A stretch of 64,000 nucleotides of DNA from an uncultured Candidatus Saccharibacteria bacterium (GCA_964629815.1 CAZVTA010000002.1:194096-258095); one strand, 5' to 3'; shown: positions 9,599-44,774, counted from the stretch's first letter. Notes: generated by a model from the sequence alone, not told the origin. Program-made: numbers and translations.

Positions 9599-10810
9599 AT
9601 GGTAAAAAAAATACTACACAGGCTACTAAAACATCGTCATCCTTGGCGTGAGATTGGCTTTGACGAACTGAGCGAAATATATATAAATTCGCTCTTTCGG
9701 AGTCTTTCTATCGCGCTGGTAGGTATATTTGTTCCGCTGTATTTGCTGCGTCTCGACTATCAGCCGTACCAGATAATGGTTGTATATGCTTGTTATTTTT
9801 CGGCAAGAATAATCTTTGACTACGTTACTGCACATACTGTTGCCGCAATTGGACCTAAGCACACCTTGGTTATAAGTCAAATTATGCAAATTGGCGTCTC
9901 TATGCTTTATATGACGCTACCATCTGCGCACTGGCCACTTGCATTCATAGGTTTTTGTTGGGGTGCAGCATCGAGTATGTTTTATATTGCTTTTGATATC
10001 GATTTTTCGAAGATTAAACACCGCAAGCATGCAGGAAAAGAGATTGGCTTTCAGCAAGTAATGGAACGCATCGGTGGGGTTTTGGGTCCTTTGATTGGTG
10101 GAATTATTGGGGTACTGTTTGGGGCACAGTATATCTTTCTTATTTCAATAGTTAGTATGGGGATAGGCATGTGGTTTTTGTTACGCACCAAAGAGCCCAC
10201 AAGGTTACATCAAGTGCTCAACTACAAGCTTTTTTCGTTCAAAGGTATAATACGAAGTCACGTTATTCCTGTTATTGGGCTCGGTGTAGAAAACACACTG
10301 AGTATTTGTTTGTGGCCGCTCTTTCTGGCACTATTCGTGCTTCCGGTTGGCAACAAGGCTTTTTCTGATATGGGGATATTGGCATCTCTGTCTGTGGTAG
10401 TTTCCATAGCGAGTGCACTTGTAACGGGAAACTTAAGCGACAAGCGACATGGTCGAAAACTTCTTCGCTCTAGTGCAGTAATAAACGCGCTCCTTCACTT
10501 GGTACGACCGTTTGTTGGGAATATTGGTTATGCAGTTGCAGTCAATGTAACAAATGAAGTAGTAACCGTAGGATATCGACTTCCGTTTATAAAGGGATTT
10601 TACGATAGTGCCGATGACTACCCAGGTTATCGTATCGTGTATATTAGTGCGGTTGAATCAGTCTCTAGTATTGCAAAAGCAGTAGTTTGGTGGTTTATGG
10701 TCATTATGGCTTATCTGTTGTCGATAAGAACGGCGCTTGTCGCAGGATTTATTATAGCTGCCATGGCATCGTTGGTATTGGCAACAGAGCGGTTTAAGGC
10801 ATTAGACTAG
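9599..10810 (+). CDS. MFS-type transporter
   Basis: About 12 predicted TM helices and an MFS motif-A-like GNLSDKRHGRKLL. Start moved to ATG 9599 because the 9473 start overlaps murC. Confidence 0.65.
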   Translation: MVKKILHRLLKHRHPWREIGFDELSEIYINSLFRSLSIALVGIFVPLYLLRLDYQPYQIMVVYACYFSARIIFDYVTAHTVAAIGPKHTLVISQIMQIGVSMLYMTLPSAHWPLAFIGFCWGAASSMFYIAFDIDFSKIKHRKHAGKEIGFQQVMERIGGVLGPLIGGIIGVLFGAQYIFLISIVSMGIGMWFLLRTKEPTRLHQVLNYKLFSFKGIIRSHVIPVIGLGVENTLSICLWPLFLALFVLPVGNKAFSDMGILASLSVVVSIASALVTGNLSDKRHGRKLLRSSAVINALLHLVRPFVGNIGYAVAVNVTNEVVTVGYRLPFIKGFYDSADDYPGYRIVYISAVESVSSIAKAVVWWFMVIMAYLLSIRTALVAGFIIAAMASLVLATERFKALD

Positions 10811-17840: not shown

Positions 17841-18260
17841 GTGAATGTTGCGTTATTGACGGAGTTTGTTGCGCGAAAACAGTATGTTGTGAGAGATGTA
17901 CTGTGCCGTAGTGGGATATTGCTAGCGTGCTTGTTGCTGGTTTTAGCATCGGTACCGCTCGGACTGCTAAAATCTCCGGAAAAAGTTTTTGCTTATTCAG
18001 GCGCAGGAACTGGAACGGCTGGTGATCCATACATTGTAACGTCATGTGCTGAGCTACAGAGTATTGGGTCTGAACCTGACACGAATGGAATTTACTATGA
18101 ACTAACAGGAGATATTGACTGTTCGGTTACTTCAGGTTGGAATAGCGGATCTGGTTTTAGTCCTATTGAAAATTTTCAGGGAAATTTTAATGGAAATAAC
18201 CACACAATAGATAGTTTATTTATCAACCGCCCTACAGAAAACAGGATTGGAAAAAAATAA
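17841..18260 (+). CDS. truncated GLUG-family head-module protein (possible gene remnant)
   Basis: 139-aa ORF with signal/TM, then DPYIVTSCAELQSIG...YYELTGDIDCSVTSGWNSGSGFSPIENFQGNFNGNNHTIDSLFINR. It stops exactly where its paralogs begin their GLUG repeats. TAATG overlap with the next gene. Confidence 0.5.
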   Translation: MNVALLTEFVARKQYVVRDVLCRSGILLACLLLVLASVPLGLLKSPEKVFAYSGAGTGTAGDPYIVTSCAELQSIGSEPDTNGIYYELTGDIDCSVTSGWNSGSGFSPIENFQGNFNGNNHTIDSLFINRPTENRIGKK

Positions 18261-20911
18261 TGAATAGACAACAATTGGTTTTAGCAGTTTTTGGCGGAGT
18301 GCTTTTTATGGGAGTGGCTCTTCTTTGGGCGCCCAGCGCAAATGCGGCAGGCGAGCCAGTAACTGTAGTTACCGGAGGTCCCGGCGTAAGCTCGAATGAT
18401 CCAATGCCAGAATTTACGTTTGTTGCCGATGTTGAAGGATCTTCATTCCGATGTCAGATAGACAGCGATCCGGCTGTTTCTTGTACGTCCCCCTATGTTG
18501 TGCCGGAGCCTCTTATTGATGGTATACATATCTTTAGTGTGAGTGCCGCCGCACCTGGAACCGAAGATTTTAATCCTTCGGCTGCTGAATATCCTTGGAG
18601 CTATACTTATGATGCAGAAACAGCCACGAACATTCATTCGTGCGAAGAGCTACAACTCATCGGGCATCACGGCAGCTATTCGCCTGCAAGTGACTACAGG
18701 CTTGCGCATGACATTGATTGTTCTGATACTGTGAACTGGAATAGTGGCCAGGGCTTTGAACCCTTGGCAAGTTTTGCCGACAGATTCACGGGGGTATTCG
18801 ATGGCGATGGCTACGCCATAAATGATCTGGTAATAAATAGAGATCCAAGTCCCACGCTTGGATTGTTTACGTATGTTCAGGGTGCGAGCTTTATCGATCT
18901 GGAAATTAGTGGTTCTGTACATAACACATCTACTGAGCTCAGTACTTGTATGGGTGGGCTGGCTGGATTTGTGTTTGATACGGTTACAATTGACGGCTTA
19001 TCAAGTTCTGTAAGCATTACGAGTGCCACGAATGATAATACTGGCGGAGGACTTGTAGGCTGTATTTCTTCCGATACTGGTCACAGTTCGATATCTAATT
19101 CACAGGTAGATGCAATAGTTGGGACGGGTGCGGCTGGAGGTTTAATAGGTGATGCTAATTTGTCTGATTCAGCAAGTTTAACCGTGAGTAATACATCGAC
19201 TTCAGGATCTGCCGAAGGGAACAATCGCGCGGCCGGGTTGATTTCGTATGTAAACTATGTGTGGGACGAAACGGCAGTCAGTACCCCGCTAATTATTGAA
19301 GATAGCACATCTACCATGGCTGTTTCAGCAAATGGCAATGCCGGCGGTCTTATCGCTAACTTGGCGCTTGATGGGCAGCCAGATTCAATCACTAACTCAA
19401 GTTTCTCAGGCACTATAAATGCTACTAGCGGTGGCAATGCCGGCGGTCTTATCGCTTCGGTTGCAAATACAGCAAATCCAGCGACACTTACGATATCAGA
19501 AAGTTTCGCTTCAACAGGGATTGTAGCTGACTCTGGCAATGCCGGCGGTCTTATCGCTGAGACAAATGCAGACCTTGAGCTTATCATCGAGCGTTCATAT
19601 GGTGCTGGGATTATTGATACCGCAGCAAGTTATGTTGGAGGGCTTGTAGGTCATGCCCAAGGATCTATAAGCATAACAGACTCGTACACCGACATTGTGT
19701 TGGACGGTACGACACGCATTGGCGGACTCATTGGTAGTGCAGAAGATGCAGATATCACTAACTCATTTGCCTTTGGAGGCATCGAAAGTACAGCAAGTAT
19801 TTTGGGCGGACTGGTTGGTGAGCTCTCAAACAGTTCAATTACGGATTCGTTTGCGTCAATGACTATCGCATCGACATGGCCAACAACGGTGGGTGGATTA
19901 ATGGGTACAAACTACGACGTGACTGTATCAAATAGCTATGTTGACACATGGCTGGGGAACAAGAGTTGTGATTCTACGGCCGGCGTAGGCTCGTCTAGCT
20001 CAGTCGACTGTACTGAAATAAGTGAAGCAAATTATTTTTTCAATAATGAAGTAAATTCACCAATAGATAATTGGAATTACGATACGGTCTGGCAAACTAA
20101 TGACTTTTTCTTCCCGTGCCTACAATGGCAAGATTACTGCCAATCGTTCGAGCCACAGGTACAATGCGAACAGCCCGATGCAACAGCAACCACCATTACT
20201 GGTGTATGTAGTATGTTGGTACGCGAAGGCTATAATTATGGAGAGACAACATGGGAAGCGCGTTATAAAAAAGCAACTGACGATACGTACCAACCAGTAA
20301 CTTTGGCCGATATAACCGAAGCACGTGCGACTATTGTTGGGCTTCAACCGGAAACAAGTTACTATCTAGAATATCGATTCACGAACGATTGGGGTACTGG
20401 CGACTGGGAGCGACAAGAATTTCTTACGCCAGCACTAACAGATATTAATATCGACATGACTTCGGCAGAAGACGCATCGCTTGTAAACTTTGTGGCTAAT
20501 GGTTGCGAACAGTTGGGAGATTGGCAGATGCTTAAAGAGAGCAACCTGGCAACACAAGATGTAGCGTACAATTATTCTGCTGGGTTAGTAGCATTCAATT
20601 TACTGAGCTGCCCAATTGGAGGTCAAGCAACTATTAGACTAACCTTTACGACCAACAAGAATCCTGAAGAGGTGGTTCTGAGAAAATATAATCAGACGCT
20701 GAAAACATTTACGTCGTTAACCCCGTCTAATAGTGGCATTACACTGGCACGAACAACACTCGAAGGTAAATCAGCTATAACGGCCACATACACAATTATA
20801 GATGGCGGAGTACTAGATCAAGACGGCATAGCCAACGGTGAAATACTTGATCCTGTAGGCATGGCCTCTTTAGTAGTCAGTGTGCCAAATACTGGGCTAG
20901 AACGACAATAG
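18260..20911 (+). CDS. large secreted GLUG-repeat surface protein with an FN3-like domain
   Basis: Signal peptide ...LLWAPSANA. Head module CEELQLIG...YRLAHDIDCSDTVNWNSGQGFEPL...FDGDGYAINDLVINR. More than 12 GGL[IV]G/A repeats, one FN3-like segment, and a C-terminal IIDGGVLDQDGIANGEILDPVG followed by VPNTGLERQ. Confidence 0.8.
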   Translation: MNRQQLVLAVFGGVLFMGVALLWAPSANAAGEPVTVVTGGPGVSSNDPMPEFTFVADVEGSSFRCQIDSDPAVSCTSPYVVPEPLIDGIHIFSVSAAAPGTEDFNPSAAEYPWSYTYDAETATNIHSCEELQLIGHHGSYSPASDYRLAHDIDCSDTVNWNSGQGFEPLASFADRFTGVFDGDGYAINDLVINRDPSPTLGLFTYVQGASFIDLEISGSVHNTSTELSTCMGGLAGFVFDTVTIDGLSSSVSITSATNDNTGGGLVGCISSDTGHSSISNSQVDAIVGTGAAGGLIGDANLSDSASLTVSNTSTSGSAEGNNRAAGLISYVNYVWDETAVSTPLIIEDSTSTMAVSANGNAGGLIANLALDGQPDSITNSSFSGTINATSGGNAGGLIASVANTANPATLTISESFASTGIVADSGNAGGLIAETNADLELIIERSYGAGIIDTAASYVGGLVGHAQGSISITDSYTDIVLDGTTRIGGLIGSAEDADITNSFAFGGIESTASILGGLVGELSNSSITDSFASMTIASTWPTTVGGLMGTNYDVTVSNSYVDTWLGNKSCDSTAGVGSSSSVDCTEISEANYFFNNEVNSPIDNWNYDTVWQTNDFFFPCLQWQDYCQSFEPQVQCEQPDATATTITGVCSMLVREGYNYGETTWEARYKKATDDTYQPVTLADITEARATIVGLQPETSYYLEYRFTNDWGTGDWERQEFLTPALTDINIDMTSAEDASLVNFVANGCEQLGDWQMLKESNLATQDVAYNYSAGLVAFNLLSCPIGGQATIRLTFTTNKNPEEVVLRKYNQTLKTFTSLTPSNSGITLARTTLEGKSAITATYTIIDGGVLDQDGIANGEILDPVGMASLVVSVPNTGLERQ
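19334..19558 (+). repeat. three perfect 24-nt direct repeats inside the GLUG gene
   Basis: ggcaatgccggcggtcttatcgct occurs at 19334-19357, 19433-19456 and 19535-19558. All copies are in frame and encode GNAGGLIA. Confidence 0.9.
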
Positions 20912-20928
20912 ACCGTTATACTAAGTAC

Positions 20929-21582
20929 ATGAGATTGCCAGTAAGTCTGAAACGATTCACGAAGAAACAAAAGCTTATTGTAGTATGTAGCGTGGCTGTA
21001 ATCGTCTTGTCTGTTGCGGGATATATATCTTTATTTAGAACCCAAATATCCAGCACCACTAAAGCAGATGTGATCACGTATTCTACCGACACGCCAGACG
21101 AAAATCCGCCAGGTAACGACTTCAAATGGCAAGGAGACAAACTAGACCCTAAGTATATTTCTCTTCCATCTATCAATGCGGGTGGTTATCTTCAGAATGT
21201 TGGCGTAGATCAGAATAAAGCAGTGGCGGTACCTAATAATATTCATATGGCAGGCTGGTTTGTAGATAGTGTGCGACCTGGTGCAATGGGAAATAGTATC
21301 ATTGACGGTCATGTAAATGGTCGCAAGAATGACGGAATTTTCAAGAATCTTGAAAAACTAAAAAAGGGCGATCAATTTTTAGTTGAGTTTGGTGATGGCA
21401 GCAAGAAAACCTTTGAAGTGGACGAGATTGTGACACTAAAGACCGAGGAGTCTGCTAGTGTTCTATTCTCGCAAAAGCCGAGCATTAAAAACCAGCTCAA
21501 TCTTATTACTTGTGGTGGTGCTTTTGATAAGCAATTACAACAGTATAGTGAACGTGTGATTGCAGTAACTAAAGCTTTGTAG
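20929..21582 (+). CDS. sortase-family transpeptidase (class E/F-like)
   Basis: N-terminal signal anchor. Catalytic triad context IIDGHVNG (His), NLITCGG (Cys), SERVIAV (Arg). TATACT at 20917-20922 lies 6 nt before the ATG. Confidence 0.85.
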   Translation: MRLPVSLKRFTKKQKLIVVCSVAVIVLSVAGYISLFRTQISSTTKADVITYSTDTPDENPPGNDFKWQGDKLDPKYISLPSINAGGYLQNVGVDQNKAVAVPNNIHMAGWFVDSVRPGAMGNSIIDGHVNGRKNDGIFKNLEKLKKGDQFLVEFGDGSKKTFEVDEIVTLKTEESASVLFSQKPSIKNQLNLITCGGAFDKQLQQYSERVIAVTKAL

Positions 21583-23121: not shown

Positions 23122-23197
23122 TGGTGGGGGTGGTTGGAATCGAACCAACTACCAAGCGGTTATGAGCCGCCTGCTCTAACCGATGAGCTACACCCCC
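23122..23197 (-). tRNA. tRNA with CAT anticodon, Ile2 (lysidine-type)-like; elongator Met not excluded
   Basis: Manual cloverleaf: GGGGGTG-TA-GCTC-ATCGGTTA-GAGC-A-GGCGG-CTCATAA-CCGCT-TGGTA-GTTGG-TTCGATT-CCAAC-CACCCCC-A-CCA. The anticodon arm and variable region resemble E. coli ileX as I recall it. CCA is encoded. Confidence 0.85.
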
Positions 23198-23277: not shown

Positions 23278-23727
23278 ATGGTTATGTTTGGAAAAATAAA
23301 AAGCAGCATAAAGCCGTACCTACCGTTGCTCACTGATAGCCGTACGCTGGGATTAATAGCATTTGGATTCGTTGCCATTCTTGTTAGCTGGAGTGGTGTA
23401 AAAGCAATTCAGACAAACTACGAGCTGCAAAAGCAGATTGCTCGTATGCAGCAAGAGAATGATGTTAAGAAACTCGAGAATGATAACCAGCGTCTCAAAA
23501 ACGAATACTATAAAACCGATCAGTTCCTGGAGCTTGCTGCACGGCGACAGTTTGGTAAGGCAGCAGAAGGCGAGCGGATATATATAGTGCCCAAAGAGGT
23601 TGCACTTGCCAATATCGTGGCTTCAAAGAAAGCAGAATCTAAAGCAACTGAAATTAAAACTTCTAAGTCTAAAGCGGCTCGTAATATCGAAGCATGGATT
23701 AACTTCTATTTGAACCGCGGCGACTAG
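23278..23727 (+). CDS. septum formation initiator (FtsB/DivIC-like)
   Basis: TM helix LGLIAFGFVAILVSWSGV, a coiled coil, then FLELAARRQFGKAAEGERIYIVP. The start may be ATG 23284, 6 nt after TATAAT (23272-23277). Confidence 0.7.
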   Translation: MVMFGKIKSSIKPYLPLLTDSRTLGLIAFGFVAILVSWSGVKAIQTNYELQKQIARMQQENDVKKLENDNQRLKNEYYKTDQFLELAARRQFGKAAEGERIYIVPKEVALANIVASKKAESKATEIKTSKSKAARNIEAWINFYLNRGD

Positions 23728-23730
23728 TAC

Positions 23731-24252
23731 TTATATGAGAGCTTGAGCAATAAGCAAGAATATCAAGATACTAATAAAGTCTTGAACAACAGTGGCGATT
23801 GGACCGCTTGCTTCTGCTGGGTCACTGTGCATTCTCCAGAAAAAATATGGCAAAACAGATCCTGTTACGAGCGACCCCATCGTGCCTCCGATCAGTGATA
23901 GACCCACCACAATGCCAAGACGCGGGTTACTATTGACTATCCATATTGCAGCACAGGCAATAGAGCCAATTATTACTGCAACGGCGCTAACGATAACTAC
24001 CTGTCTTTTCAAAAATCCACCAAAATCAAAACGTCCTTTTTTGTGTAATTCACGAATAATCATGCTTTCCATCTGGGTTCCGACCGAATCACTCATGTTC
24101 AGGATTAAGGGAATAAAACTTGCCAGTACAAGATTTGTAGATAGTGTTTCCTCGAATCCGGTAATGATTTTAGCAATAATCAGACTTAGACCGAGTCCGA
24201 TCAGTAGCCATAAAACACGAGTCTTAATTTCGTGATAATAGTTCATTAACAC
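23731..24252 (-). CDS. MgtE-like divalent-cation transporter, membrane domain only
   Basis: 173 aa with five TM helices. SDSVGTQMESMIIRELH and GPIATVVQDFISILIFL resemble the MgtE TM domain. No N-terminal CBS region. Confidence 0.55.
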   Translation of the reverse strand: MLMNYYHEIKTRVLWLLIGLGLSLIIAKIITGFEETLSTNLVLASFIPLILNMSDSVGTQMESMIIRELHKKGRFDFGGFLKRQVVIVSAVAVIIGSIACAAIWIVNSNPRLGIVVGLSLIGGTMGSLVTGSVLPYFFWRMHSDPAEASGPIATVVQDFISILIFLLIAQALI

Positions 24253-24337
24253 TATTTAAGCATAACTATAATAAAAGCTCGAATCTATAAGAGTAGTAGT
24301 GCAAACTGTGTCAAAATATATTATCATAAGCGTAAAT

Positions 24338-26050
24338 ATGAGGCGTAAAGTAATATCATCGTTAAGGCCATCTCGTGTTTTAAGTAGTTTTCGATCTTCA
24401 AACGAGAAACGCGCCCAACTTTCTTTGTGGGCGGTATTTTTTATTATGGTTGGCATTACCACCTTGCTCGCAACTAAAGCCGCAACGCCGACGGCATCGA
24501 TTGAGCCAGAAAACTCATCCCGAAGCGGTTCTTTGTCTGTACAGACAGGCGGACAATCGAGCGGAACGGGATATGTACGCTTTGGGTCGGTCGCAAACCA
24601 AGATGCAAATCTTGCCAAATTACTTGCTGCAACTTCCCGGAACAAATCTGCTGATAATCCAGCCAATGTTAATAAGCCGTCTGCAGGATTAGAGAATGAC
24701 TCGTCATTATTTAGTAGTTCATATGTAGGCACATACACTGGGAGTACCGACCCGAGTGTTACTCCGGGCGAAGGTTTTGGTGAGTTTAGGGCTGAATGCG
24801 ATTTTTCGCATTATGCCTATGATGATCCGATCGTGTATCCAAACCAGCCGGGCAAGGCCCATTTACATATGATTTTCGGTAATACGCATACTAATGCATA
24901 CTCAAATTACAATAGCCTATTGAACTCGGGAAATAGCACATGTAACGGCCATGAGCTAAACAGGACTGCATACTGGGTTCCCGCAGTTATTGATCAAGAC
25001 GGAAACCCTAGGCGTCCCATAAAAGTGCTTATTTATTATAAGTCGTATAGTATTACGAACACCCAAACAGATTCCTGGGCCCCAGGCAATAATGGTCTTG
25101 AGTATGTAAAGCCTTTTGTTTTTCCGGAAGGGTTAATGATGGTGAATAATTTTACACGCTGTACAGCAAGCCTTAGTTGGACGACGGTAAACCTTGGTTC
25201 GGGATGCCCGACAGCAAATCAACAGGTAACGTTAGGTGCGAATAATCAAGAAATTCGTATGACGGCGGCTTGGACGTGTGGGATAGTCTGGGACAACGGT
25301 TCTCATAACGGCGGAGATTATGAAACGTATGTCGATGGAACGCAAATACCCACGTGCCCTGCAACAGGAAGTGTAACAGATAATCCGGTACGTACTTTAC
25401 AGCAGCACGTAGTATTTCCTTACTGCTCCAACAATAGTAGCGATATGAAAAATCGTGACTATACTACGATAAAGAATGATATGCACTGGAATATCTCTTG
25501 GTCTTGGTTCTTTGCCGTATGCCCGAGTGACTATAAATACAAAGTACCACAGATACAGTACAAGATCAGCTATCCTATATATCCGGGAGAAGACACTTCC
25601 AAGTGGTATCTTTCATCTGATATTGACCCAGCAAACGGGCAGATTAAAACTACTAATTACCAATACTACTCAGATGATCAGACTACAATAAACTATAAGA
25701 CTGCAAAGAATGGCGCAACATCACATGGTGACTGGTTTGGTGGCTGGAACCGAACTGTGCTTGATCAATGGCTGCACGCTTGCAATTTCGTTGATGGAGC
25801 AGACTGCGCCGAAGGTGTTTTTCCTGTGCCGATTAGTGCAGCAACAAAAGCATTAGTTAAGCCAACACGAGTACCGCTCATTCCTAATACAAGCAAACCA
25901 TATAACGGCTGGTATACACTTACGAATAATGATGTATTTAAGGTAAATGGTCAGCAATTGCACCAAGAAGTTTGTGGCGCTCCAAAGCGCTTCACGGTTA
26001 ACGGAACCACTATACCCAAGGGTGCTGATATAGCGTACTGTACGCCTTAG
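24338..26050 (+). CDS. secreted DUF1996-domain protein
   Basis: Signal anchor, then FRAECDFSHYAYDDPIVYPNQPGKAHLHMIFGNT (DUF1996 signature as I recall it). Start placed at ATG 24338 (MRRKV). Confidence 0.65.
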   Translation: MRRKVISSLRPSRVLSSFRSSNEKRAQLSLWAVFFIMVGITTLLATKAATPTASIEPENSSRSGSLSVQTGGQSSGTGYVRFGSVANQDANLAKLLAATSRNKSADNPANVNKPSAGLENDSSLFSSSYVGTYTGSTDPSVTPGEGFGEFRAECDFSHYAYDDPIVYPNQPGKAHLHMIFGNTHTNAYSNYNSLLNSGNSTCNGHELNRTAYWVPAVIDQDGNPRRPIKVLIYYKSYSITNTQTDSWAPGNNGLEYVKPFVFPEGLMMVNNFTRCTASLSWTTVNLGSGCPTANQQVTLGANNQEIRMTAAWTCGIVWDNGSHNGGDYETYVDGTQIPTCPATGSVTDNPVRTLQQHVVFPYCSNNSSDMKNRDYTTIKNDMHWNISWSWFFAVCPSDYKYKVPQIQYKISYPIYPGEDTSKWYLSSDIDPANGQIKTTNYQYYSDDQTTINYKTAKNGATSHGDWFGGWNRTVLDQWLHACNFVDGADCAEGVFPVPISAATKALVKPTRVPLIPNTSKPYNGWYTLTNNDVFKVNGQQLHQEVCGAPKRFTVNGTTIPKGADIAYCTP

Positions 26051-27504
26051 TCTCTATAGAATGCAGGAATCTGCGGGTTGAACGGGTCTATATGCGTATA
26101 GCTAGTGCGTTTTTTGCCTGTTTCGTCCGTGCTTTGCCGAGGAAAATAGTTGCTCCAATCGCCTACTTCATCATCTTTTTCGTTACGTATGAGTGCTCCC
26201 CGCGCATTGGCACGCGTATCGGTTGGCGGGGTTAGTATCTGATTTTGTGTTCTGTGAATTGCAGGATTAGCAAAACCACGCCAAAGCTGTGGCTTACGAC
26301 GAAGTTGTTCTGCTATGCCGCCACCAAGTTTATCCCAGTAATAATCGAAACGACAGAGTCTTTCTGAGCCGATCGGCTCACCGGATTGTTCTATTTTTCT
26401 ATCTATGGCCTCTTTGCGCGCAATTGACTCGACATATGGAACGGCGCGCTGAGGGTCGGTACTGATAAGATCGGTTACCTCAATAATTTCTTCTAGAACT
26501 TGAAACATTTCTGCACTGAAGTAGTCTTGATTATCCTCGAGTCGCAGGGCTCGATCGCACAGCTCGCGAATGATGCGTGCAGGTTTTTCGCCGTGGCGTA
26601 CTTTTGTTGATGGGTCTTCAATCGAAACGTCGTTGGTATTGCCGAAGCGGCCAATAATACGTGCTGCCCGCAATGGATCCCGTAGTCTTGGTACGACGTC
26701 TATGCGACCAGCTTCGATTAGCCGAAAGACCGCGTTACTAAATACAAGGCTTGCACGGAGTGCCCATGGAAAACTGAGTGTGTCGTTGGTTACGGTCTCT
26801 ATGCGTTTAAACGATCCGTCTTGTTTGAAGTTTGTGCGAACGAGTGGTCTCGCATTAGACTCGCCGTATAATGCGTGCAGTCTCTCGCTTGAAACAGACA
26901 AGCGGGGTGCATGGTGGTAGTGTGTCCTTCCGTGCTCGTCTAGCAAGAGGCCACCCGAGCCAAACATTGCGCCCTTTACTGCATTTATACCTGCAATTGT
27001 ATGTATAAGACCGGGATATTCTTCGGTAAGTAAGCTAAGGTGATTTAGGTGGGTTGCACGTGATGTTCTGTTGTGGTCGACAGCTTTTCGGTTGATCTGA
27101 AATGATTCGATGATGCCTTCTGCGCGCAGTGCGGCAAAGGCACGTAGTATAATCGTATCACCATCAAAACAGCGCACTACTGCTTCTTCGGCTGTTCTAG
27201 CTTCGGGTGTTGAATATTCTGGTCCACTAGGGTCGAAGTAAAATCGGCCGCCGTTTGAAACAAAACCGCCATCTGCCCAGACAAGACCATATTGCATTAA
27301 AGCAAACTGAAGCGCTCCTCTGAGGCCTAAAACGCCACCATCACTAAATGCGTTTTCGACCGGGGCTTCATATAAGCTAAGCTGAGTGTCTTTAGAATGG
27401 CAAGATCCTACAATTTCGTATGCCGGTGTATCTGGCATAGTAAGGGTGTAGCTATACTCGGTCTCTACACCGTAAATATTGTCATCAGGACCTCGAGTAA
27501 TCAT
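26047..27504 (-). CDS. Pup-ligase/deamidase family protein (PafA/Dop-like carboxylate-amine ligase)
   Basis: GVETEY, NGGRFYFDPSGPEYSTPE, THLNHL, RIETVTNDT, RFDYYWDKL and TPPTDTRANARG are collinear with PafA/Dop motifs (GIETEF, NGARLYLD.GSHPEYAT.E, CHENYL, RLHVIVGDSN, EIDWVIKRKL, PPQTTRARLRG). Confidence 0.75.
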   Translation of the reverse strand: MITRGPDDNIYGVETEYSYTLTMPDTPAYEIVGSCHSKDTQLSLYEAPVENAFSDGGVLGLRGALQFALMQYGLVWADGGFVSNGGRFYFDPSGPEYSTPEARTAEEAVVRCFDGDTIILRAFAALRAEGIIESFQINRKAVDHNRTSRATHLNHLSLLTEEYPGLIHTIAGINAVKGAMFGSGGLLLDEHGRTHYHHAPRLSVSSERLHALYGESNARPLVRTNFKQDGSFKRIETVTNDTLSFPWALRASLVFSNAVFRLIEAGRIDVVPRLRDPLRAARIIGRFGNTNDVSIEDPSTKVRHGEKPARIIRELCDRALRLEDNQDYFSAEMFQVLEEIIEVTDLISTDPQRAVPYVESIARKEAIDRKIEQSGEPIGSERLCRFDYYWDKLGGGIAEQLRRKPQLWRGFANPAIHRTQNQILTPPTDTRANARGALIRNEKDDEVGDWSNYFPRQSTDETGKKRTSYTHIDPFNPQIPAFYRD

Positions 27505-27554
27505 TCAAACATAATAAATTTATTGTACTGTCAATGCAAGCACGAGCAGGATGT

Positions 27555-28661
27555 TTACTCGAGTGTTCGTGTCCAGTTGCGGCTACTTCTATCATAGACA
27601 AACCCAAGGCGCTTTGCTTGCTTGTCGTAGGCTGATAAGGCTTGATCGAGTGTCATATGGGCTTCTTTTTCGCGACCTTGCGGTTTTATCCACTTATTCT
27701 TTCTGCCCGATTGAATTGTAAGCTGGTCTATTTCGCCTTGCTGTGCGAAGTCTTCGGTAATGGCAATCATGAGTCTTTGCCAATCAAACGGGTAAAGACC
27801 GCGCGAGTGCACTCGGGCAACCTTTTCAAGCTCGTAACCTTTATTATGAATACGCCATGGGCGTATGCCCTGTAATTGTTGTATAACGAGCTCTCTTCCG
27901 TGAGTTGCAAGGCCAACAACAGCCTGGGGAACATCGCGGTAGATAAGCACGATTCCGGTTGGTGAATCGAGCCATAGGCTATAATACAGATTTTTTTCGT
28001 GGTCATAACTCCATTTGTCGACCGATCCATCAATGCACGTCATCCCTTCGGATGTGCCAACAGGTGATATAAACCGGCTTGCTTGAACGGGCTCAAGTCG
28101 GTAGTTGTTAATCCGAGCATCGCTAATTGGTGATTCTGTTCGAGATGATTCAGTAAGATGTCGCGGCAAATCTACTGAGTCGAGCCCGCCAGTAAAGAGC
28201 CGTTCCATAGAAAAATAGTGGGGCATTATGTCTTTGTGGAGAGAACTATGACTACGCTTTACCCAAGCATATTTTTTGGCTTTGCGAAATAGCTCTAAAT
28301 CGTAGCCAAGTGCTGCAACTGTATTAGCTGGCTCATCTTCATTTCCTGGAGTTCTGCATCCAAACCATTCAAGTACTTTACGTCCTAATCTTTCTTCAAT
28401 AAGTTCTTTAGAGAGGGGCTGCAGTAGGTGTGCGATTTCGTATGACCTATCTTCTCCTTCGGGCGTGTTATCAAGAAAGTCCACAGGGTCTTCTTTGCTA
28501 AAGACTTTTTCGGCAAACTCAAACATTTCTTCTGTATACGCACAGATCATGTCTGAGTACGCGCCGGAATATCTGCGTTCGTAATATTGTTGCACGCCTC
28601 GATATATTTCGGGGGTACGAAGAAAATCAATAGCGGAGGAAGAGGTTTCGGTAATCGTCAT
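27555..28661 (-). CDS. hypothetical protein; the C-terminal half may have a GNAT-like fold
   Basis: 368-aa ORF. VVGLATHGRELVIQQLQGIR...WQRLMIAITEDFAQQGEIDQLTIQSG...ALSAYDKQAKRLGFVYD resembles the GNAT beta4-alpha3...alpha4-beta6 pattern. This is a weak call made by eye. Confidence 0.5.
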   Translation of the reverse strand: MTITETSSSAIDFLRTPEIYRGVQQYYERRYSGAYSDMICAYTEEMFEFAEKVFSKEDPVDFLDNTPEGEDRSYEIAHLLQPLSKELIEERLGRKVLEWFGCRTPGNEDEPANTVAALGYDLELFRKAKKYAWVKRSHSSLHKDIMPHYFSMERLFTGGLDSVDLPRHLTESSRTESPISDARINNYRLEPVQASRFISPVGTSEGMTCIDGSVDKWSYDHEKNLYYSLWLDSPTGIVLIYRDVPQAVVGLATHGRELVIQQLQGIRPWRIHNKGYELEKVARVHSRGLYPFDWQRLMIAITEDFAQQGEIDQLTIQSGRKNKWIKPQGREKEAHMTLDQALSAYDKQAKRLGFVYDRSSRNWTRTLE

Positions 28662-28676
28662 GCGGTCAATGTGTTA

Positions 28677-29240
28677 TCAGCGCCAGCCTAATTTTGCACC
28701 TTCTAATATGCGCCACGTGTTAAATCTGTCTTTGGGTATGATACGAACTGGCCACCAACTTGCCCAGCCATCTATCGAGGCACGCACAATGTCTCGTTCG
28801 AACGAAAGCACATCAATGACTGCCTTCGGGTCTTTACCAATTTCTCGTACATCGGTGCAATGTTTTGTAGCAGGTCGCACGCTTTGACCGTCAATATTAA
28901 AAGGGTGTCTTTCGTATTGTGCAGCACCCACCTCGGGAATATCGAGTCGTATAAACCAATCTACTAACGATCCGTGGGTTTTTTTACGCAAAGAAAATCC
29001 ATCAGCGGCAACACACAGGTGCATCTGTTCGAACGGCATAGGTCGGTGAGGCTGAGTAGTACGAGGTAATTCGCTCAGTGTTCGTGGCTCGTCGGGTAGT
29101 ATCTCGCTTCGAAGGCCTCGAAACATGTTAAGCGCAACACGGATGGTAATGAGTGCGGATTCGGCTAAGCTTTGCTGGCCATTAAGCGGTTCGGGGTTTA
29201 CTTCTGCAGGGATTGCTGGTGGATATTGTGATTCTCGCAT
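28677..29240 (-). CDS. hypothetical protein
   Basis: 187-aa ORF with a good promoter: TTGCAA (29270-29275), 16 nt, TATAAC (29248-29253), 7 nt, ATG. Confidence 0.6.
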   Translation of the reverse strand: MRESQYPPAIPAEVNPEPLNGQQSLAESALITIRVALNMFRGLRSEILPDEPRTLSELPRTTQPHRPMPFEQMHLCVAADGFSLRKKTHGSLVDWFIRLDIPEVGAAQYERHPFNIDGQSVRPATKHCTDVREIGKDPKAVIDVLSFERDIVRASIDGWASWWPVRIIPKDRFNTWRILEGAKLGWR

Positions 29241-29294
29241 GCAACTAGTTATAAAGCAAATGGGCTAATTTGCAAGCATAAGCAAAGTGTTATT

Positions 29295-29546
29295 CTAGGT
29301 TCGTACTTTTGTAATAAGCCGAAGATTCGCAAGATAATGCTGCGGGTTCGTTGCTGGATGGTTACGGATATACTTAACATGTTTATCTACAAAAGGCATT
29401 AAATTGTCTGGATATTTTTCTGCGTCAGAACTAAACGTTGGTTCAGTGTTGAAACGCAGGTCTTGGTCCATTGCCTTTAGTACTTTGAGTAATTCATGCC
29501 CGGCATCAGTCTCAAAAAAATCAATTTTTTTTGTGTAGCTAGACAT
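29295..29546 (-). CDS. hypothetical small protein
   Basis: 83-aa ORF with SD AAAGGAAG upstream. No motif recognised. Confidence 0.6.
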   Translation of the reverse strand: MSSYTKKIDFFETDAGHELLKVLKAMDQDLRFNTEPTFSSDAEKYPDNLMPFVDKHVKYIRNHPATNPQHYLANLRLITKVRT

Positions 29547-29608
29547 TATTTACTTCCTTTGGGCTGTTTTGGTTTTTTGATTTCTTTTCGCCCTTTGTCC
29601 TTTGACAT
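29546..29608 (-). CDS. candidate 20-aa Lys-rich micro-ORF (MSKDKGRKEIKKPKQPKGSK)
   Basis: Hand-translated. Its TAA shares a base with the ATG of the 83-aa gene (TAATG). Too short for the ORF track, and it has only a weak SD. Confidence 0.3.
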   Translation of the reverse strand: MSKDKGRKEIKKPKQPKGSK

Positions 29609-32796: not shown

Positions 32797-32871
32797 TGGT
32801 AGCGGGGGCAGGACTCGAACCTGCGACCTTGTGGTTATGAGCCACACGAGCTGCCACTGCTCTACCCCGCG
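32797..32871 (-). tRNA. initiator-type tRNA-Met (CAT)
   Basis: Manual cloverleaf: CGCGGGG-TA-GAGC-AGTGGCA-GCTC-G-TGTGG-CTCATAA-CCACA-AGGTC-GCAGG-TTCGAGT-CCTGC-CCCCGCT-A-CCA. The unpaired C1xU72 is the bacterial initiator hallmark. Confidence 0.85.
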
Positions 32872-34192: not shown

Positions 34193-34867
34193 TTAAAACA
34201 GTACGCGGGCAGCAAATACGATAGAATGACGCGAAGTGTCGGTGCGCGGGTTCCAAAAACGATGATACATGGCTTGTGACGAAACGCGGTGTGCGCCCGG
34301 CCCACGCATACCAACGATAGCAGCAGGAAAGTGGGCCACAGATGACTGCCGCGTGTTGCGAGCCCATGGCCAAAAGCGACGGCTTGGCGCTATTTCGGCA
34401 GCAAATTCGTTGGGCATAATGCCCACGACAACATCAATGCCGCCATCGGTATGCCACGGCGACCCGCTACACTGAGGGTAAGTTTTATTAAAAGCTACCG
34501 ATGTTGCGAGGCATTTTTCTCCCAAGTTTCGTAGCTGCGGATAGATTCGCTCGAGCGCGTACATGCCGGTAGCAAGTAGGGCTGCTTGTTCTTCGCTAAC
34601 TACTGCCATCGCCTTTTTGTAGCTCGAATCTTTGTCGCTCATAAAAAAATGTGCATGGGGGTGGTTGTTTGAGCTTTCGATACGAATTGCCTCGGCTGCA
34701 TCTACGGCTTCAGTGGTTGCTGCAGTGATAGTATCCGAAAAAGTTGCAGGAACAATAACCACACCATTGCGATGGGCGCGCAAAGCTACTGTGCTCATAA
34801 TTTCGCCGAGTACTTCGTACGAGTTTATGTGTTGTTCGGGGGTGGTTTCGATGAGGTTGGGTTTCAT
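34193..34867 (-). CDS. hypothetical protein, possibly an Fe(II)/2-oxoglutarate dioxygenase-like fold
   Basis: 224-aa ORF. WHTDGG (HxD), a later GAHRVS His and RHSIVF Arg are reminiscent of the TauD/PhyH facial triad. Weak call. Confidence 0.45.
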   Translation of the reverse strand: MKPNLIETTPEQHINSYEVLGEIMSTVALRAHRNGVVIVPATFSDTITAATTEAVDAAEAIRIESSNNHPHAHFFMSDKDSSYKKAMAVVSEEQAALLATGMYALERIYPQLRNLGEKCLATSVAFNKTYPQCSGSPWHTDGGIDVVVGIMPNEFAAEIAPSRRFWPWARNTRQSSVAHFPAAIVGMRGPGAHRVSSQAMYHRFWNPRTDTSRHSIVFAARVLF

Positions 34868-34901
34868 AATAATAAACCCCAGCCCTAGCTGAGGTATAAG
34901 T

Positions 34902-34978
34902 TGGTGCCGGTGAGTGGACTTGAACCACTGACCCCAGGCTTATGAGTCCTGTGCTCTAACCAGCTGAGCTACACCGGC
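34902..34978 (-). tRNA. elongator tRNA-Met (CAT)
   Basis: Manual cloverleaf: GCCGGTG-TA-GCTC-AGCTGGTTA-GAGC-A-CAGGA-CTCATAA-GCCTG-GGGTC-AGTGG-TTCAAGT-CCACT-CACCGGC-A-CCA. It resembles E. coli metT as I recall it. Confidence 0.85.
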
Positions 34979-35094
34979 ACGTCATTGTGTATGGGACCGA
35001 GGTTGAGCAGAGTGAAATATAGCACATTTAATCTGTTTTGACTAGGTTATAACAGATTATTGTCAAAAATAGCGTAGAGGGGTAAGGTAGCTAT

Positions 35095-35841
35095 GTGCGA
35101 GTAGAGAACAAATACGAATTTTTTGGCGCGCCATTGCCTACCTTACAAGATTTGCGAATGCTTGATTTGTGGATTCCAAATATGTCACCAGACCATATGC
35201 TCACTTCTGTTGGGCGCTGGGCTGTACGGATAGCACGTCAGGATACATATATTGTGGACGCAATTCAGCATGACAAGCGAGTTGCAGTGTTAACTAACGA
35301 TTGTGGGATATATTTAGGAGAACAAAGAGAATTTTTCGAGCATGGTATTGATATCGGGTATGATTTACTTATAGACATATTCTCTAAAGTTCGATACGAA
35401 CGCCAAGGTTTTCAGAGCTTGGATAACTTTGTTGCGAGCCCGGATGCACAGGTTGTTGGGTCGGCATATGCCTTGCGTGCTATAACGCGTGCGCGGCGAG
35501 GCCACATAGCACCGTACTTTCCCCGAAACAGTGACGGCCAAGAAGCATACGAAGTTTTGTATGCAAAGGCAGGCGATGTAGCCGTTGCTTATAACGAGCG
35601 TGGGGGTAATGTATTTAATTGTTATAGAGACATTGTTGTTGATGCTATTCAAAAGAGTGACACTTATAGCGCGCGTAATCGGGGCAGTGTTGTGAACGGT
35701 CTGATGTGTGGGTTTGACCATGCAAAATCTATGTATTTAGAGGGGTATATTGCAAGAAGTACAGAACAGCTTGATCAAGAGCTGATTGGATACGTTCGTA
35801 CAGGTTTTGACGATGATGATCCGATACGCGGTTTTTTGTAG
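35095..35841 (+). CDS. hypothetical cytoplasmic protein
   Basis: 248-aa ORF with a GTG start after SD-like GAGGGGTAAGGTAG. No motif recognised. Confidence 0.55.
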   Translation: MRVENKYEFFGAPLPTLQDLRMLDLWIPNMSPDHMLTSVGRWAVRIARQDTYIVDAIQHDKRVAVLTNDCGIYLGEQREFFEHGIDIGYDLLIDIFSKVRYERQGFQSLDNFVASPDAQVVGSAYALRAITRARRGHIAPYFPRNSDGQEAYEVLYAKAGDVAVAYNERGGNVFNCYRDIVVDAIQKSDTYSARNRGSVVNGLMCGFDHAKSMYLEGYIARSTEQLDQELIGYVRTGFDDDDPIRGFL

Positions 35842-35904
35842 TTAGGTTAAATCGATGAAAATATATTCACTAGATTTATTCTAAAAAAGGCGTATGCTCC
35901 AGAT

Positions 35905-36324
35905 ATGGAGCAATCCAGAGATATGATTCAGGGTGGGTTATATGTAGTGCAGAGTCGTGGTGGTGCACCGGTGGCTCTGTGTGCTAATGCTTGCAGCGGC
36001 GAATTTTATACGCTTGTCTCCGATGATGTACCTGCTTTTCGGCGAGAGGAATTTCATAACGGCCTGAAACTTGAGTCAGATTATGTAGCGACCGATAATA
36101 CCGGAACCATTACAATCCTTGGCCATATTGGTACTTTGCTGGCAGGTATCACCATAGAAAAGCGTTCAGAGAGTGTGATCGCCGAATTGCTTCGTGCGAA
36201 TGCGTGCCATGCAGCATCGGACGTAGAGCGGGCGTTTTACAGTGGCGTACTTAAAGGGGTGCAAGAAGGTACCGTTGCTATTGAACCGGGTTACGTGCGA
36301 TTACCTCAGTTAAGCAAGGTATGA
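35905..36324 (+). CDS. hypothetical cytoplasmic protein
   Basis: 139-aa ORF. TATGCT at 35893-35898 lies 6 nt before the ATG. Confidence 0.55.
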   Translation: MEQSRDMIQGGLYVVQSRGGAPVALCANACSGEFYTLVSDDVPAFRREEFHNGLKLESDYVATDNTGTITILGHIGTLLAGITIEKRSESVIAELLRANACHAASDVERAFYSGVLKGVQEGTVAIEPGYVRLPQLSKV

Positions 36325-41967: not shown

Positions 41968-42867
41968 ATGGACATAATGCTTGAGCCTGGCGTATACATA
42001 GTCGCGGTATCTGGTGGTGTTGATTCAATGAGTTTGCTTCACATGCTCGCTACCGTGTATGCAGATAAAAAAGATGTTTCGTTTGTTGTTGCACACTATG
42101 ACCACGGTATTCGAGCCGATTCTGACACCGACCGAAAACACGTTGCACAAGTGGCAAAAACGTATGGACTACCTTTTGTTTATGAAGCTGGTTCACTCGG
42201 CGAAGCGGCAAGCGAACAAGTTGCGCGTCATGCCCGTTATGACTTTTTGCGGCGCGTGCAGGCGGCTGCTCAGGCGAGGGCAATAATCACCGCTCATCAT
42301 CAAGACGATCTGCTCGAAACCGCTGTCTTGAACGTGTTGCGTGGCACTGCACGAAAAGGAATTAGTTCTCTGCAAGACCGTCCGGAATTACGGCGTCCGT
42401 TACTTGGAGTTAGTAAAGCTGACATATATAACTACGCCAAAGAACAGGGTTTAGCTTGGCGCGAAGATGCTACTAATGCCGACACTAAAATTGCACGCAA
42501 TTATCTACGTCACCGTGTGCTCGCCCGGCTGAATGCCGATCAGAAAAAACAACTCTTGAGCCATGTAACACATATTACGATGCTAAACAGGCTTATCGAC
42601 GAAGAACTCATGCGGTATCTGCACGTGCAGCCGTCTCGGCAGACGCTTGATAGACATCAATTTATTATGTTGCCGCACATAGTCGCACGTGAGGTTATGG
42701 CTGCATGGCTTCGAAGTCATGGTATCCGTGAATTCGATAAACGTATGCTTGAAAAGCTGGTGATTGCAGCAAAAACATTGCAGCCAGGTAAAGTAACCGA
42801 CGTGAATCGTCTGGCGTACATGCATGTCGGCAATGAGGTTCTGGCACTCATTATCAGAGACCGCTAG
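41968..42867 (+). CDS. tilS: tRNA(Ile)-lysidine synthetase (short form)
   Basis: PP-loop VAVSGGVDSMSLLH, then HYDHGIR and TAHHQDDLLET. Confidence 0.85.
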   Translation: MDIMLEPGVYIVAVSGGVDSMSLLHMLATVYADKKDVSFVVAHYDHGIRADSDTDRKHVAQVAKTYGLPFVYEAGSLGEAASEQVARHARYDFLRRVQAAAQARAIITAHHQDDLLETAVLNVLRGTARKGISSLQDRPELRRPLLGVSKADIYNYAKEQGLAWREDATNADTKIARNYLRHRVLARLNADQKKQLLSHVTHITMLNRLIDEELMRYLHVQPSRQTLDRHQFIMLPHIVAREVMAAWLRSHGIREFDKRMLEKLVIAAKTLQPGKVTDVNRLAYMHVGNEVLALIIRDR

Positions 42868-42902
42868 TATTTCGTCTTTTTCCCCTGTATAATGTGCCGT
42901 AC

Positions 42903-44774
42903 ATGGACAAGAAACCTTTTAGAAGAAAACAGCAATCAGTGGGTAATACTAATAAGAAAACATTTAAGAATGCAGGCTTTTTTGCGCTCCTCGTGCTTAT
43001 CGGTCTTGTAGTTGTAGCGGCAATGGGCACGCCATCTACCTTAAAAGATGTGGCATATTCAGACGTTATTAGACGCGCAAACGCGGGCGAGATTCGCAAA
43101 ATTGTCATCAAGGGCGATAGTCTTGAAATTACTAAAAAAGGCGAAGATAAGCCAACCGAGAAGTCGCGCAAGGAAACCGGCTCGAGCATTTACGAGCAAG
43201 GGCTATCCAACAGAGATGTTGAGGTATCGGTAGACAAGCCGTCAGATAGTGGTGACTTCTGGCTGAGTATTGCGGGCACGGTCATTCCACTCGTATTATT
43301 TAGCGCCATATTCATTATTATGATTCGCAATGCGCAGGGTCAGGGCAACCAAGCGATGAGCTTTGGTAAGAGTCGCGCGCGATTGTATGGTAACGAAAAA
43401 GACAAGGTTACGTTCAAAGATATTGCTGGAAGCGAAGAGGCAAAGATAGACTTGCAAGAAATCGTTGAATTTCTAAAGTTTCCGAAGAAATTTGAGTCAG
43501 TCGGTGCCAAAATCCCTAAAGGCGTGTTGCTTGTAGGTCCTCCAGGAACGGGTAAGACCATGCTTGCACGAGCAGTTGCAGGCGAAGCGAACGCACCATT
43601 CTTTAGCATTTCTGGTTCTGAATTTGTTGAAATGTTTGTTGGTGTTGGTGCTTCACGTGTGCGAGATCTGTTTGCAAAAGCCAAGAAAAATTCGCCATGC
43701 ATTATCTTTATCGACGAAATCGATGCAGTAGGCCGCAAACGTGGTAGCGGTATGGGTGGCGGCCACGATGAGCGTGAGCAAACACTGAACCAGATTCTTG
43801 TCGAGATGGATGGTTTTGAACAGGGTACAAATGTAATTGTACTGGCGGCAACCAACCGTGCCGATGTTCTCGATAGTGCTTTGCAGCGTCCTGGTCGTTT
43901 TGACCGACGCGTCAACATCGACCTGCCAGATCGCAAAGATCGCGAAGCTATTCTTAAGATTCATTTCGATAAAAAGCCACTCGGTAAAGATGTTAACCTA
44001 GATGCTCTGGCTGCCAAAACGGCTGGTTCGTCTGGAGCGGATCTTGCGAACATTGCAAACGAAGCAGCCATAATTGCGGCACGTCATAATCGAAAAGAAA
44101 TCACCAACCACGATGTGACGTCGGCCTTTGAAAAAGTTGCCATTGGTCCAGAGCGCAAGAGTCGCATTATGAGCGACAGAGAAAAAGAAATTACTGCTTA
44201 CCACGAAGCTGGCCATGCTGTTGTCGGTCATACGCTGCCCGAGAGTGACATGGTTCATAAAGTTACAATTATCCCGCGTGGTGGCACGGGGGGTGTTACA
44301 TGGTTCTTACCGCCAGAGGATAAGAGTTACCATAGTATTGTAGAATTTAAGGGTATTCTTGCTCGTGCATTAGGTGGCCGTATTGCTGAAGAAGTTGTGT
44401 ATGGTCGTGACCAAGTAACAACAGGTGCTGGTAATGATCTGCAAAAAGCTGCCGAAATTGCCCGAGACATGATTGTGCATCAGGGTATGGGTACAAAATT
44501 GCGCGACCAAGTATTTCAGGTCGACGAGGGTATGATGCTTGATCGGCTTGTGCATGAGCGAACGTATTCTGACGATACGGCAAAGCTTATTGACGAAGAA
44601 GTTGAAGCGCTGATTACCGAAGCGGCAACACGTGCCCGCGAAGTAATCAAGGCAAACAAACCTGCACTTGATGCGTTGAAGGATGCCCTGCTTGCCAAAG
44701 AGACACTCGAGGCGGAAGAGGTTCTTGAAATCTTGAAAGATTGCAAGATGCCAAAAGCGGCTGCAATAATCTAA
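42903..44774 (+). CDS. ftsH: ATP-dependent zinc metalloprotease FtsH
   Basis: Two TM helices, Walker A GPPGTGKT, Walker [32 protein letters not shown], and zinc site HEAGHAV. Start placed at ATG 42903, after TATAAT (42888-42893). Confidence 0.95.

Follow-up and report, generated by a model that had tools for sequence, protein, structure and literature searches.

Within a 64,000-nucleotide stretch of DNA from an uncultured Candidatus Saccharibacteria bacterium (GCA_964629815.1, CAZVTA010000002.1:194096-258095), which we call the window, lies a gene for a 485-aa protein that an earlier note had described as an orphan PafA/Dop (Pup-ligase family) enzyme in a block of unknown genes. We refer to this protein as the ligase. 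The features at the locus are listed below; the ligase is the sole one among them that belongs to the finding, the remaining open reading frames (ORFs) being its neighbours.

26047-27504, minus strand: the 485-aa ligase, a stand-alone, Dop-like member of the Pup_ligase family from a Saccharibacteria-specific clade
27256-27453, minus strand: the clade-specific insert (residues 18-83 of the ligase) between the GxExE and NGxRxY motifs, at the position of the Dop-loop
27232-27234, minus strand: the codon of Asp91, the aligned counterpart of the catalytic Asp94 in Acidothermus Dop and of Asp64 in C. glutamicum PafA
27555-28661, minus strand: p368, a lineage-specific ORF of 368 aa that lies upstream of the ligase in the same orientation, at a distance of 50 bp
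28677-29240, minus strand: p187, a lineage-specific ORF of 187 aa
29295-29546, minus strand: p83, an ORF of 83 aa from a small Saccharibacteria-only family, used here as a synteny anchor
29546-29608, minus strand: an ORF for a 20-aa Lys-rich micropeptide, MSKDKGRKEIKKPKQPKGSK, whose stop codon overlaps the start codon of p83 as TAATG

The four larger ORFs and the hand-found 20-aa ORF lie exactly where the earlier note had placed them, and the six motifs it had quoted from the ligase are present in the order it gave: GVETEY (residues 12-17), NGGRFYFDPSGPEYSTPE (84-101), THLNHL (151-156), RIETVTNDT (234-242), RFDYYWDKL (385-393) and TPPTDTRANARG (425-436). Ligase, p368, p187 and p83 are co-directional and separated by 50, 15 and 54 bp, respectively, and the micropeptide and p83 are translationally coupled through the TAATG overlap. 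A promoter and terminator scan of the gene block returned no more sites than shuffled sequence did and was uninformative on operon structure. On the other side of the ligase a DUF1996 gene (583 aa, 24299-26050, plus strand) is convergent with it, the two 3' ends overlapping by 4 nt.

The family assignment of the ligase is solid, since both its sequence and its predicted structure lead to the Pup ligases. Searched with the Pfam profile Pup_ligase (PF03136), as the earlier note had proposed, the protein gave a significant full-length match (E=7e-30, 104.8 bits with a gathering cut-off of 25 bits, profile positions 2-433 of 441). The AlphaFold2 model, built on a 30-sequence alignment, reached a pLDDT of 84.7 and a pTM of 0.89, with low confidence at residues 33-58, which fall in the insert, as one would expect of a mobile loop. 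When this model was compared with the PDB using Foldseek, the 11 best matches were all Dop or PafA chains (TM-scores of 0.66-0.82), with 0.75/0.79 for Dop 4b0r and 0.72 for PafA 4bjr, while the next folds, those of YbdK, glutamine synthetase (GS) and glutamate-cysteine ligase, scored at most 0.47 at 8-13% identity. The model shows the GS-like N-domain with its beta-sheet cradle followed by a small C-terminal domain. No match to the ligase was found in PADLOC or PHROGs.

Within this family the ligase is neither a Dop nor a PafA but part of a lineage specific to Saccharibacteria. It scored 61.0 bits with the Dop equivalog profile TIGR03688 (cut-off 492.3) and 55.8 bits with the PafA equivalog TIGR03686 (cut-off 551.3), and a profile of the clade gave 68 bits against Acidothermus Dop versus 45 bits against Corynebacterium PafA. 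About 30 relatives at 43-49% identity were retrieved from 5.8 billion proteins, the named ones all from Candidatus Saccharibacteria or Saccharimonadales, after which identity fell to about 22-24% for genuine Dop/PafA2 proteins. In species-representative genomes 13 loci were found, in ten metagenome-assembled genomes named Saccharibacteria and three labelled only 'bacterium'. An exhaustive profile search over 1.84 billion cluster representatives returned 1,078 proteins at E<=1e-3 but only 45 at E<=1e-30. In a tree of 151 full-length representatives (neighbour-joining, distance-based and midpoint-rooted, hence rough and approximate) the Saccharibacteria clade was monophyletic and fell outside the branch that holds canonical Dop and PafA, its sisters being the protein P0061 and a group that includes a protein from 'Saccharibacteria bacterium CPR2'. 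The earlier note's view that this would be no ordinary pafA or dop is borne out by the scores below both equivalog cut-offs, by the position outside the Dop and PafA branch and by the remodelled active site described below. A recent transfer from an actinobacterial host was considered as well and rejected, given the roughly 22-24% identity to true Dop and the same position in the tree.

The two canonical enzymes differ from the ligase in different ways. Dop (TIGR03688; 4B0R, 5LRT, 7OXV-7OYH, 9CKU) has the same fold and is the best sequence and profile match, yet identity is only about 18-24%, the score lies far below the cut-off (61 against 492 bits), several residues of the active site are replaced and no pup, mpa or prcBA genes lie nearby. 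PafA (TIGR03686; 4B0T, 4BJR) shares the fold (query-normalised TM-scores of 0.66-0.72) and the catalytic core. It is distinguished by the absence of a Dop-loop, by the one-residue insertion in D-V-G-S-H-P-E and by A-T-A, these discriminating positions being taken from Table 1 of PMC7947786; the ligase has neither that insertion nor the DVGSHPEYATA motif, showing Asp-x4-Glu and S/A-T-P instead, its INTRDEPH motif is remodelled and it carries an insert of 65-72 aa where PafA has a short hinge. According to the same study (Hecht et al. 2020, PMC7947786), Dop/PafA homologs occur in Actinobacteria and Nitrospirae, with scattered cases in NC10, Armatimonadetes, Verrucomicrobia, Nitrospinae, Firmicutes, Proteobacteria and Planctomycetes, and Saccharibacteria are not among these phyla. 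The ligase is, in a further phylum, a protein of the same type as the non-canonical single-copy homologs described there (the Planctomycetes outgroup and the sporadic cases), which like the ligase are neither clearly Dop nor clearly PafA; those outside Actinobacteria and Nitrospirae partially align with the Dop-loop, and the Planctomycetes proteins are, by the published figures through which we compared them, 29-31% identical to Dop/PafA as against about 22-24% for the ligase.

The active site was compared in a residue table covering 30 clade members, 14 canonical Dops, five sister sequences and 101 other family members, and residues are numbered here as in Acidothermus Dop unless a residue of the window protein is named. 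In that Dop the Mg ligands are E8, E10, Y92, E99, H155 and H241, the catalytic residue is D94, R227 holds the catalytic phosphate, and W47 of the Dop-loop stacks on H231 and W453 (PMC8599861). All 30 clade members have R90, Y92, D94, H155, N157, R205, R239, D246, T432, R433 and R437, while E8, E10, E99, R221, A434 and W453 are conserved in at least 90%; this whole set, from GxExE to T-R-A..R and W453, is shared with Dop, as are the Asp-x4-Glu spacing, Pro103 and a long insert at the Dop-loop position. In the window protein this core, conserved throughout the family as it is in the clade, reads R87, Y89 and D91 (within N-G-x-R-x-Y-x-D), E96, H152, N154, R201, R219, R234 and D241, followed by T430-R431-A432...R435 in a conserved PPxDTRAxxRG motif and by W450, and the GxExE glutamates, E14 and E16, are nearly invariant across the clade. 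R87, Y89, D91 and H152 do not vary, E96 hardly does, and in place of the sixth ligand, His241, every member has Glu236; the position of Asp91 is unchanged in all 30 members and across the whole family. The clade has thus kept the Mg/ATP/catalytic-Asp core.

Around this core the departures from Dop are uniform as well, with the phosphate-binding strand and the Dop-loop both remodelled throughout the clade. The DHAHPE motif has become DPSGPE clade-wide, with loss of His95 and His97, and R227-D-E of INTRDEPH is deleted in all 30 members, so that two conserved residues of Dop, His95 beside the catalytic Asp and Arg227, are missing. In every member Gln204 is replaced by Pro (P200), Asn225 by Arg (Arg223, which sits two residues ahead of the deleted R227) and the Mg ligand His241 by Glu (Glu236), and in 28 of the 30 His231 is replaced by Phe. 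Thr217, which in the alpha-loop of Dop hydrogen-bonds the last residue of Pup, is not conserved. Other Cys and His residues are invariant within the clade (H144, H198 and C384; H197 nearly so).

The earlier note had drawn attention to a Leu at the Glu of the H-E-N motif. The replacement is real and clade-wide (27 Leu and three Ile among the 30), but the concern attached to it finds no support, since E156 is not among the published Mg ligands (PMC8599861) and the position varies throughout the family, with Glu in 61 of the 101 other members and Val, Ile or Ala also occurring. In the AlphaFold2 model this Leu lies in a beta-strand between His152 and Asn154, and the geometry of the strand would therefore turn its side chain away from the active site.

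The insert that separates GxExE from NGxRxY was examined for relatedness to the Dop-loop, whose definition includes a Trp47 present in all Dop orthologs (PMC8599861). Most clade members have a spacing of 65-72 aa between the two motifs and a few reach 80 aa, compared with about 80 in Dop and about 44 in PafA. Though similar in length to that of Dop, the insert has no counterpart of Trp47 and lacks the loop's signature (W-D-F..ESPL.DARG, with its ESPLxDARG core); what it carries instead is a G-x-C-H motif (C35, H36), shared by 41 of the 44 clade sequences and the sister P0061 but by no other sequence of the set. The insert is thus unrelated to the Dop-loop whose position it takes.

No proteasome, Pup or Mpa domain was detected among the 64 ORFs of the window scanned with Pfam, in which the only AAA protein is FtsH (42894-44774), and the called genes of the annotated related loci contained no PF00227 or Mpa domain; in all, roughly 335 kb were examined without a sign of Pup, Mpa or the proteasome. 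Likewise, neither the window nor the ligase loci, about 274 kb in total, contained a free-standing ORF of up to 150 aa ending in G[QE], the candidates (two in the window, 12 across the loci) all being shadow ORFs inside larger ones. The orphan status claimed in the earlier note with respect to pup, prcBA and mpa, together with its remark that no neighbouring ORF ends in GG[QE], thus holds for the window, and the former for every related locus examined. The literature pairing Saccharibacteria or Patescibacteria with pupylation, PafA or 'proteasome accessory factor' yielded no relevant paper, and a search for UBact only incidental mentions.

The reading we favour, with a probability of about 0.6, is that the ligase is a genuine stand-alone ATP-dependent amide ligase or amidase that acts on a substrate other than canonical Pup and has no conserved partner gene. 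The protein is probably active as an enzyme, judging from its conserved residues. Mg-ATP would be bound in the beta-sheet cradle, and a gamma-glutamyl-type carboxylate would be activated as an acyl phosphate before an amide bond is formed, as in PafA; alternatively, as in Dop, a bound phosphate and a water activated by Asp91 would attack the matching amide and cleave it. Arg223 and Glu236 may take over the roles of Arg227 and His241, and the mobile G-x-C-H insert may gate the site or contribute to it, as the Dop-loop does in Dop. We lean weakly towards a peptide or protein carboxylate as the substrate rather than a free amino acid. There is also a slight, weak lean towards Dop-like amidase chemistry, since the profile scores (68 versus 45 bits) and the Asp-x4-Glu spacing point that way, as does the presence of a long insert ahead of strand beta2. 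Canonical Pup itself is an unlikely substrate, since Thr217 and the Dop-loop are missing and no pup gene is in view.

Several points weigh against this reading. With R227, the Arg that holds the catalytic phosphate of Dop, gone and one of the His ligands of Mg replaced, activity could be altered or lost. A divergent Pup-like gene may exist elsewhere, the scans having covered the window and related loci rather than whole genomes, and the placement of the clade rests on the rough neighbour-joining, midpoint-rooted tree. Finally, p368, p187, p83 and the ligase run in the same direction at distances of 50, 15 and 54 bp, and a strain-specific functional link between them is possible.

The changes in the active site could also mean that the ligase is a catalytically dead relic or pseudo-enzyme with a structural or regulatory role, since R227-D-E is lost, H241 and E156 are changed and the two His residues beside the catalytic Asp, H95 and H97, have disappeared. 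We regard this as improbable. The remaining residues for metal, ATP and catalysis show little or no variation, and at the changed positions the new residues are fixed in turn (R223, E236, P200), a sign of compensation; invariance of altered residues among sequences that are 43-49% identical argues for a functional, re-engineered site rather than decay. Moreover, a Glu at the position of H241 is the type of metal ligand found in GS itself.

A small-molecule enzyme is a further alternative, in which the ligase would be a gamma-glutamyl-type ligase resembling YbdK/GCS2 or GS, with no protein substrate. YbdK/GCS2, glutamate-cysteine ligase and GS belong with the family to the carboxylate-amine ligase superfamily and share with it the beta-sheet-cradle fold class and the Mg-ATP acyl-phosphate chemistry, and the gene stands alone without a protein partner. 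The genomic contexts of more distant homologs bear on this possibility. About 1,000 other PF03136 cluster representatives, P0061-P0188 among them, are non-canonical, carrying neither the Dop (DHAHPEYS) nor the PafA (DVGSHPEYATA) signature, and in many the N-terminus shows 'GTEMEW' and H-E-N is replaced by H-[IVL]-N. Another 'Saccharibacteria' PafA2-family protein, P0143, belongs to a separate lineage. Five contexts from four lineages were sampled, all of them stand-alone and without proteasome or Mpa genes:

L018: FGase, sigma-70 and WhiB genes
L019: PGA_cap, LexA-like and WhiB genes
L020: after Mur-ligase and Ddl genes and before LeuRS
L021: next to a resolvase gene
L025: beside a ribosomal-protein operon on a 0.9-Mb contig

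Orphan members of the family are thus common in uncultivated bacteria, several with contigs of the size seen in the candidate phyla radiation, and the clade of the ligase is one well-conserved lineage among them. In L018 (1318-3732) the homolog lies directly downstream of an FGase-family (N-formylglutamate amidohydrolase) gene, and in L020 (4269-8380) directly downstream of the Mur-ligase and D-Ala-D-Ala-ligase genes, a hint of glutamate or peptidoglycan-peptide chemistry. These sister contexts favour a small-molecule substrate, but they are single instances outside the clade itself. The ligase has in addition kept the C-terminal domain, with its PPxDTRAxxRG motif and W453, which is described as unique to pupylation enzymes (PMC8599861) and which YbdK, GS and glutamate-cysteine ligase do not have, so that we consider a purely small-molecule role unlikely. 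As a separate observation, WhiB-family genes were seen near PF03136 genes in L004 (16862-17407), L018 (4803-5141) and L019 (9774-10100), on contigs of the Saccharibacteria type. Genes of this family are known mainly from Actinobacteria and their phages.

Another possibility is a fast-evolving but otherwise ordinary dop or pafA whose Pup-proteasome system, of the canonical type, lies elsewhere in the same genome. The Pfam family is the same, NCBI names the clade members PafA2 and only 64 kb of this genome are visible, but the scores are about 8-10 times below the equivalog cut-offs and the W47 motif, H95/H97, R227 and H241 are all changed clade-wide. Neither pup, prcBA nor mpa occurs in the window, PF00227 and Mpa are absent from the called genes of the annotated ligase loci, and no small ORF ending in G[QE] was found in the roughly 274 kb of those loci. 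Since Saccharibacteria are also missing from the phyla of PMC7947786 and from the pupylation literature searched, we hold this explanation to be very unlikely.

The earlier note had proposed that the ligase forms, with the micropeptide, p83, p187 and p368, a new Pup-independent tagging or amide-forming operon. The arrangement in the window speaks for it: five co-directional ORFs with gaps of at most 54 bp, all with coding-like codon usage, one of them Lys-rich, lysine being the acceptor residue in pupylation; and the micropeptide-p83 cassette is also found 2.4 kb upstream of the ligase in L004/L005. As the note had said, the upstream ORFs belong to no assignable family: p368 and p187 matched nothing in Pfam, NCBIfam, PADLOC or PHROGs, and p83 nothing significant in Pfam or NCBIfam and nothing in PADLOC or PHROGs. 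Among 5.8 billion proteins p368 matched only itself, and its single-sequence AlphaFold2 model (pLDDT 38) was unusable. The codon usage of p368 and p187 is coding-like in their own frame and not in the other five, and they are probably real, lineage-specific genes.

The co-occurrence of these ORFs with the ligase in relatives, which the note had proposed to check, did not hold up. Searching nine window proteins against 17 loci with tblastn revealed no homolog of p368 or p187, and jackhmmer searches of p83, p187 and p368 against 21 loci found nothing in common beyond p83 in one relative (L004/L005). When all ORFs of at least 30 aa within 6 kb of the ligase were clustered all-against-all over 15 loci, the ligase and its overlapping shadow ORFs were the only shared members. 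The annotated contexts of three clade members all differ from one another and are free of proteasome, Mpa and Pup families. In L004 other genes, encoded on the opposite strand, separate p83 from the ligase, in the other ligase loci the cassette is absent within up to 10 kb on either side of the ligase, and neither p83 nor the micropeptide ends in Gln or Glu. The block of unknown genes is therefore not a conserved system, and p368 and p187 would be lineage-specific cargo rather than parts of a tagging system, though p368 is possibly co-transcribed with the ligase in this genome.

The candidacy of p83 as a partner failed on the same ground, as its family occurs without a ligase nearby. The family comprises 24 clusters, all from Saccharibacteria, with the core YPDNLMPFVDKH...HYLANLRL, and the micropeptide precedes p83 in four genomes: MSKDKGRKEIKKPKQPKGSK in the window, MSKDRGRKETKKPKTQKPKV in L004/L005, MSKDKGRKEVKKPKQAKGSV in L022 and MPKDRGRKAVKKPKQVKTKA in L024. 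Its consensus is about M-S-K-D-[KR]-G-R-K-E-x-K-K-P-K. The stop-start overlap of the window is replaced by a gap of a few nt in the other loci, and gene calling missed the micropeptide in L004 and L022; in L024 it placed a 46-aa gene over that stretch. The cassettes outside the window are at:

L004: 5295-5610
L022: about 9935-10252
L024: about 9936-10249

No ligase was present within 10 kb on either side of the cassette in L022, which was fully sampled, nor in L023 within the available 6 kb upstream and 10 kb downstream of p83, a partial sample; the L024 sequence ends just after p83 and is uninformative downstream. The micropeptide and p83 thus form a Saccharibacteria-specific cassette of their own, independent of the ligase. 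A syntenic set of ABC transporter, Dus, DivIC and p83 is common to the window, L004, L023 and L024, and the stretch between p83 and divIC holds entirely different genes in the three that were compared:

Window, 23278-29608: p187, p368, ligase, DUF1996 and MgtE
L004, 5295-16769: two opposite-strand genes, the ligase, then copper/metal-related genes
L023, 6249-10709: PDT, Crp and ADH

The ligase gene accordingly stands alone as an accessory gene. The stretch that it occupies is variable and bounded by two conserved anchors, the cassette and divIC, a position typical of accessory genes, for which the stretch looks like a hot spot. The proximity of p83 and the ligase in two genomes follows from this local synteny. 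The idea of a ligase operon is thus, on comparative grounds, largely refuted by lack of conservation, and we give it very little credence.

Cultivated Saccharibacteria live as epibionts of Actinobacteria. That the ligase cleaves or deamidates host Pup or Pup conjugates, whether taken up from the host or delivered to it, would suit a Saccharibacteria-restricted clade that is closer to Dop than to PafA and shows no endogenous Pup in the window or ligase loci, but it is the least probable of the explanations considered, as the protein lacks a signal peptide (its catalytic GxExE motif begins as early as residue 12), is too deeply divergent (22-24% identity) for a recent acquisition from Actinobacteria and does not conserve the alpha-loop Thr217 that binds the last residue of Pup, and as similar orphans occur in other lineages for which a host association is mostly not established.

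Elsewhere in the window, a span of 12 kb contains three CAT-anticodon tRNA genes (23122-23197, 32797-32871 and 34902-34978, all on the minus strand), and because a TilS-like PP-loop gene is present at 41968-42867, one of the three may be a tRNA-Ile2 read as Met by ARAGORN. An 883-aa GLUG-motif protein followed directly by a sortase gene (18260-21582, plus strand) suggests a sortase-anchored surface protein pair. A giant ORF of 2,137 aa (49118-55531, plus strand) combines fibronectin-III domains with a C-terminal HATPase_c domain, an unusual architecture, and three adjacent ORFs of 224, 248 and 139 aa at 34193-36324 have no Pfam match.

The ligase is a predicted enzyme and not a demonstrated new system. 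Its clade is already labelled automatically by the NCBI pipeline as 'proteasome accessory factor PafA2 family protein', and no description of it was found in the literature searched. Pupylation enzymes are regarded as components of the Pup-proteasome pathway of Actinobacteria and Nitrospirae, and a conserved, apparently active and structurally remodelled orphan in ultra-small Saccharibacteria, together with many similar orphans elsewhere, suggests that the family has an ancestral or alternative function that is not pupylation. A bolder and tentative extension, which we think rather doubtful at present, is that the clade, and perhaps much of the wider radiation, forms a Pup-independent class in which the Arg223/Glu236 site and the Cys-His insert serve a different substrate or chemistry; its members would then tag or untag proteins with a partner other than Pup, or process the Pup conjugates of the actinobacterial host. 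Identifying the substrate would reveal the evolutionary source of the Pup ligase, or a new amide-forming or amide-cleaving modification in bacteria with reduced genomes, and the ligase offers a concrete entry point to the roles of the Pup-ligase fold outside pupylation.

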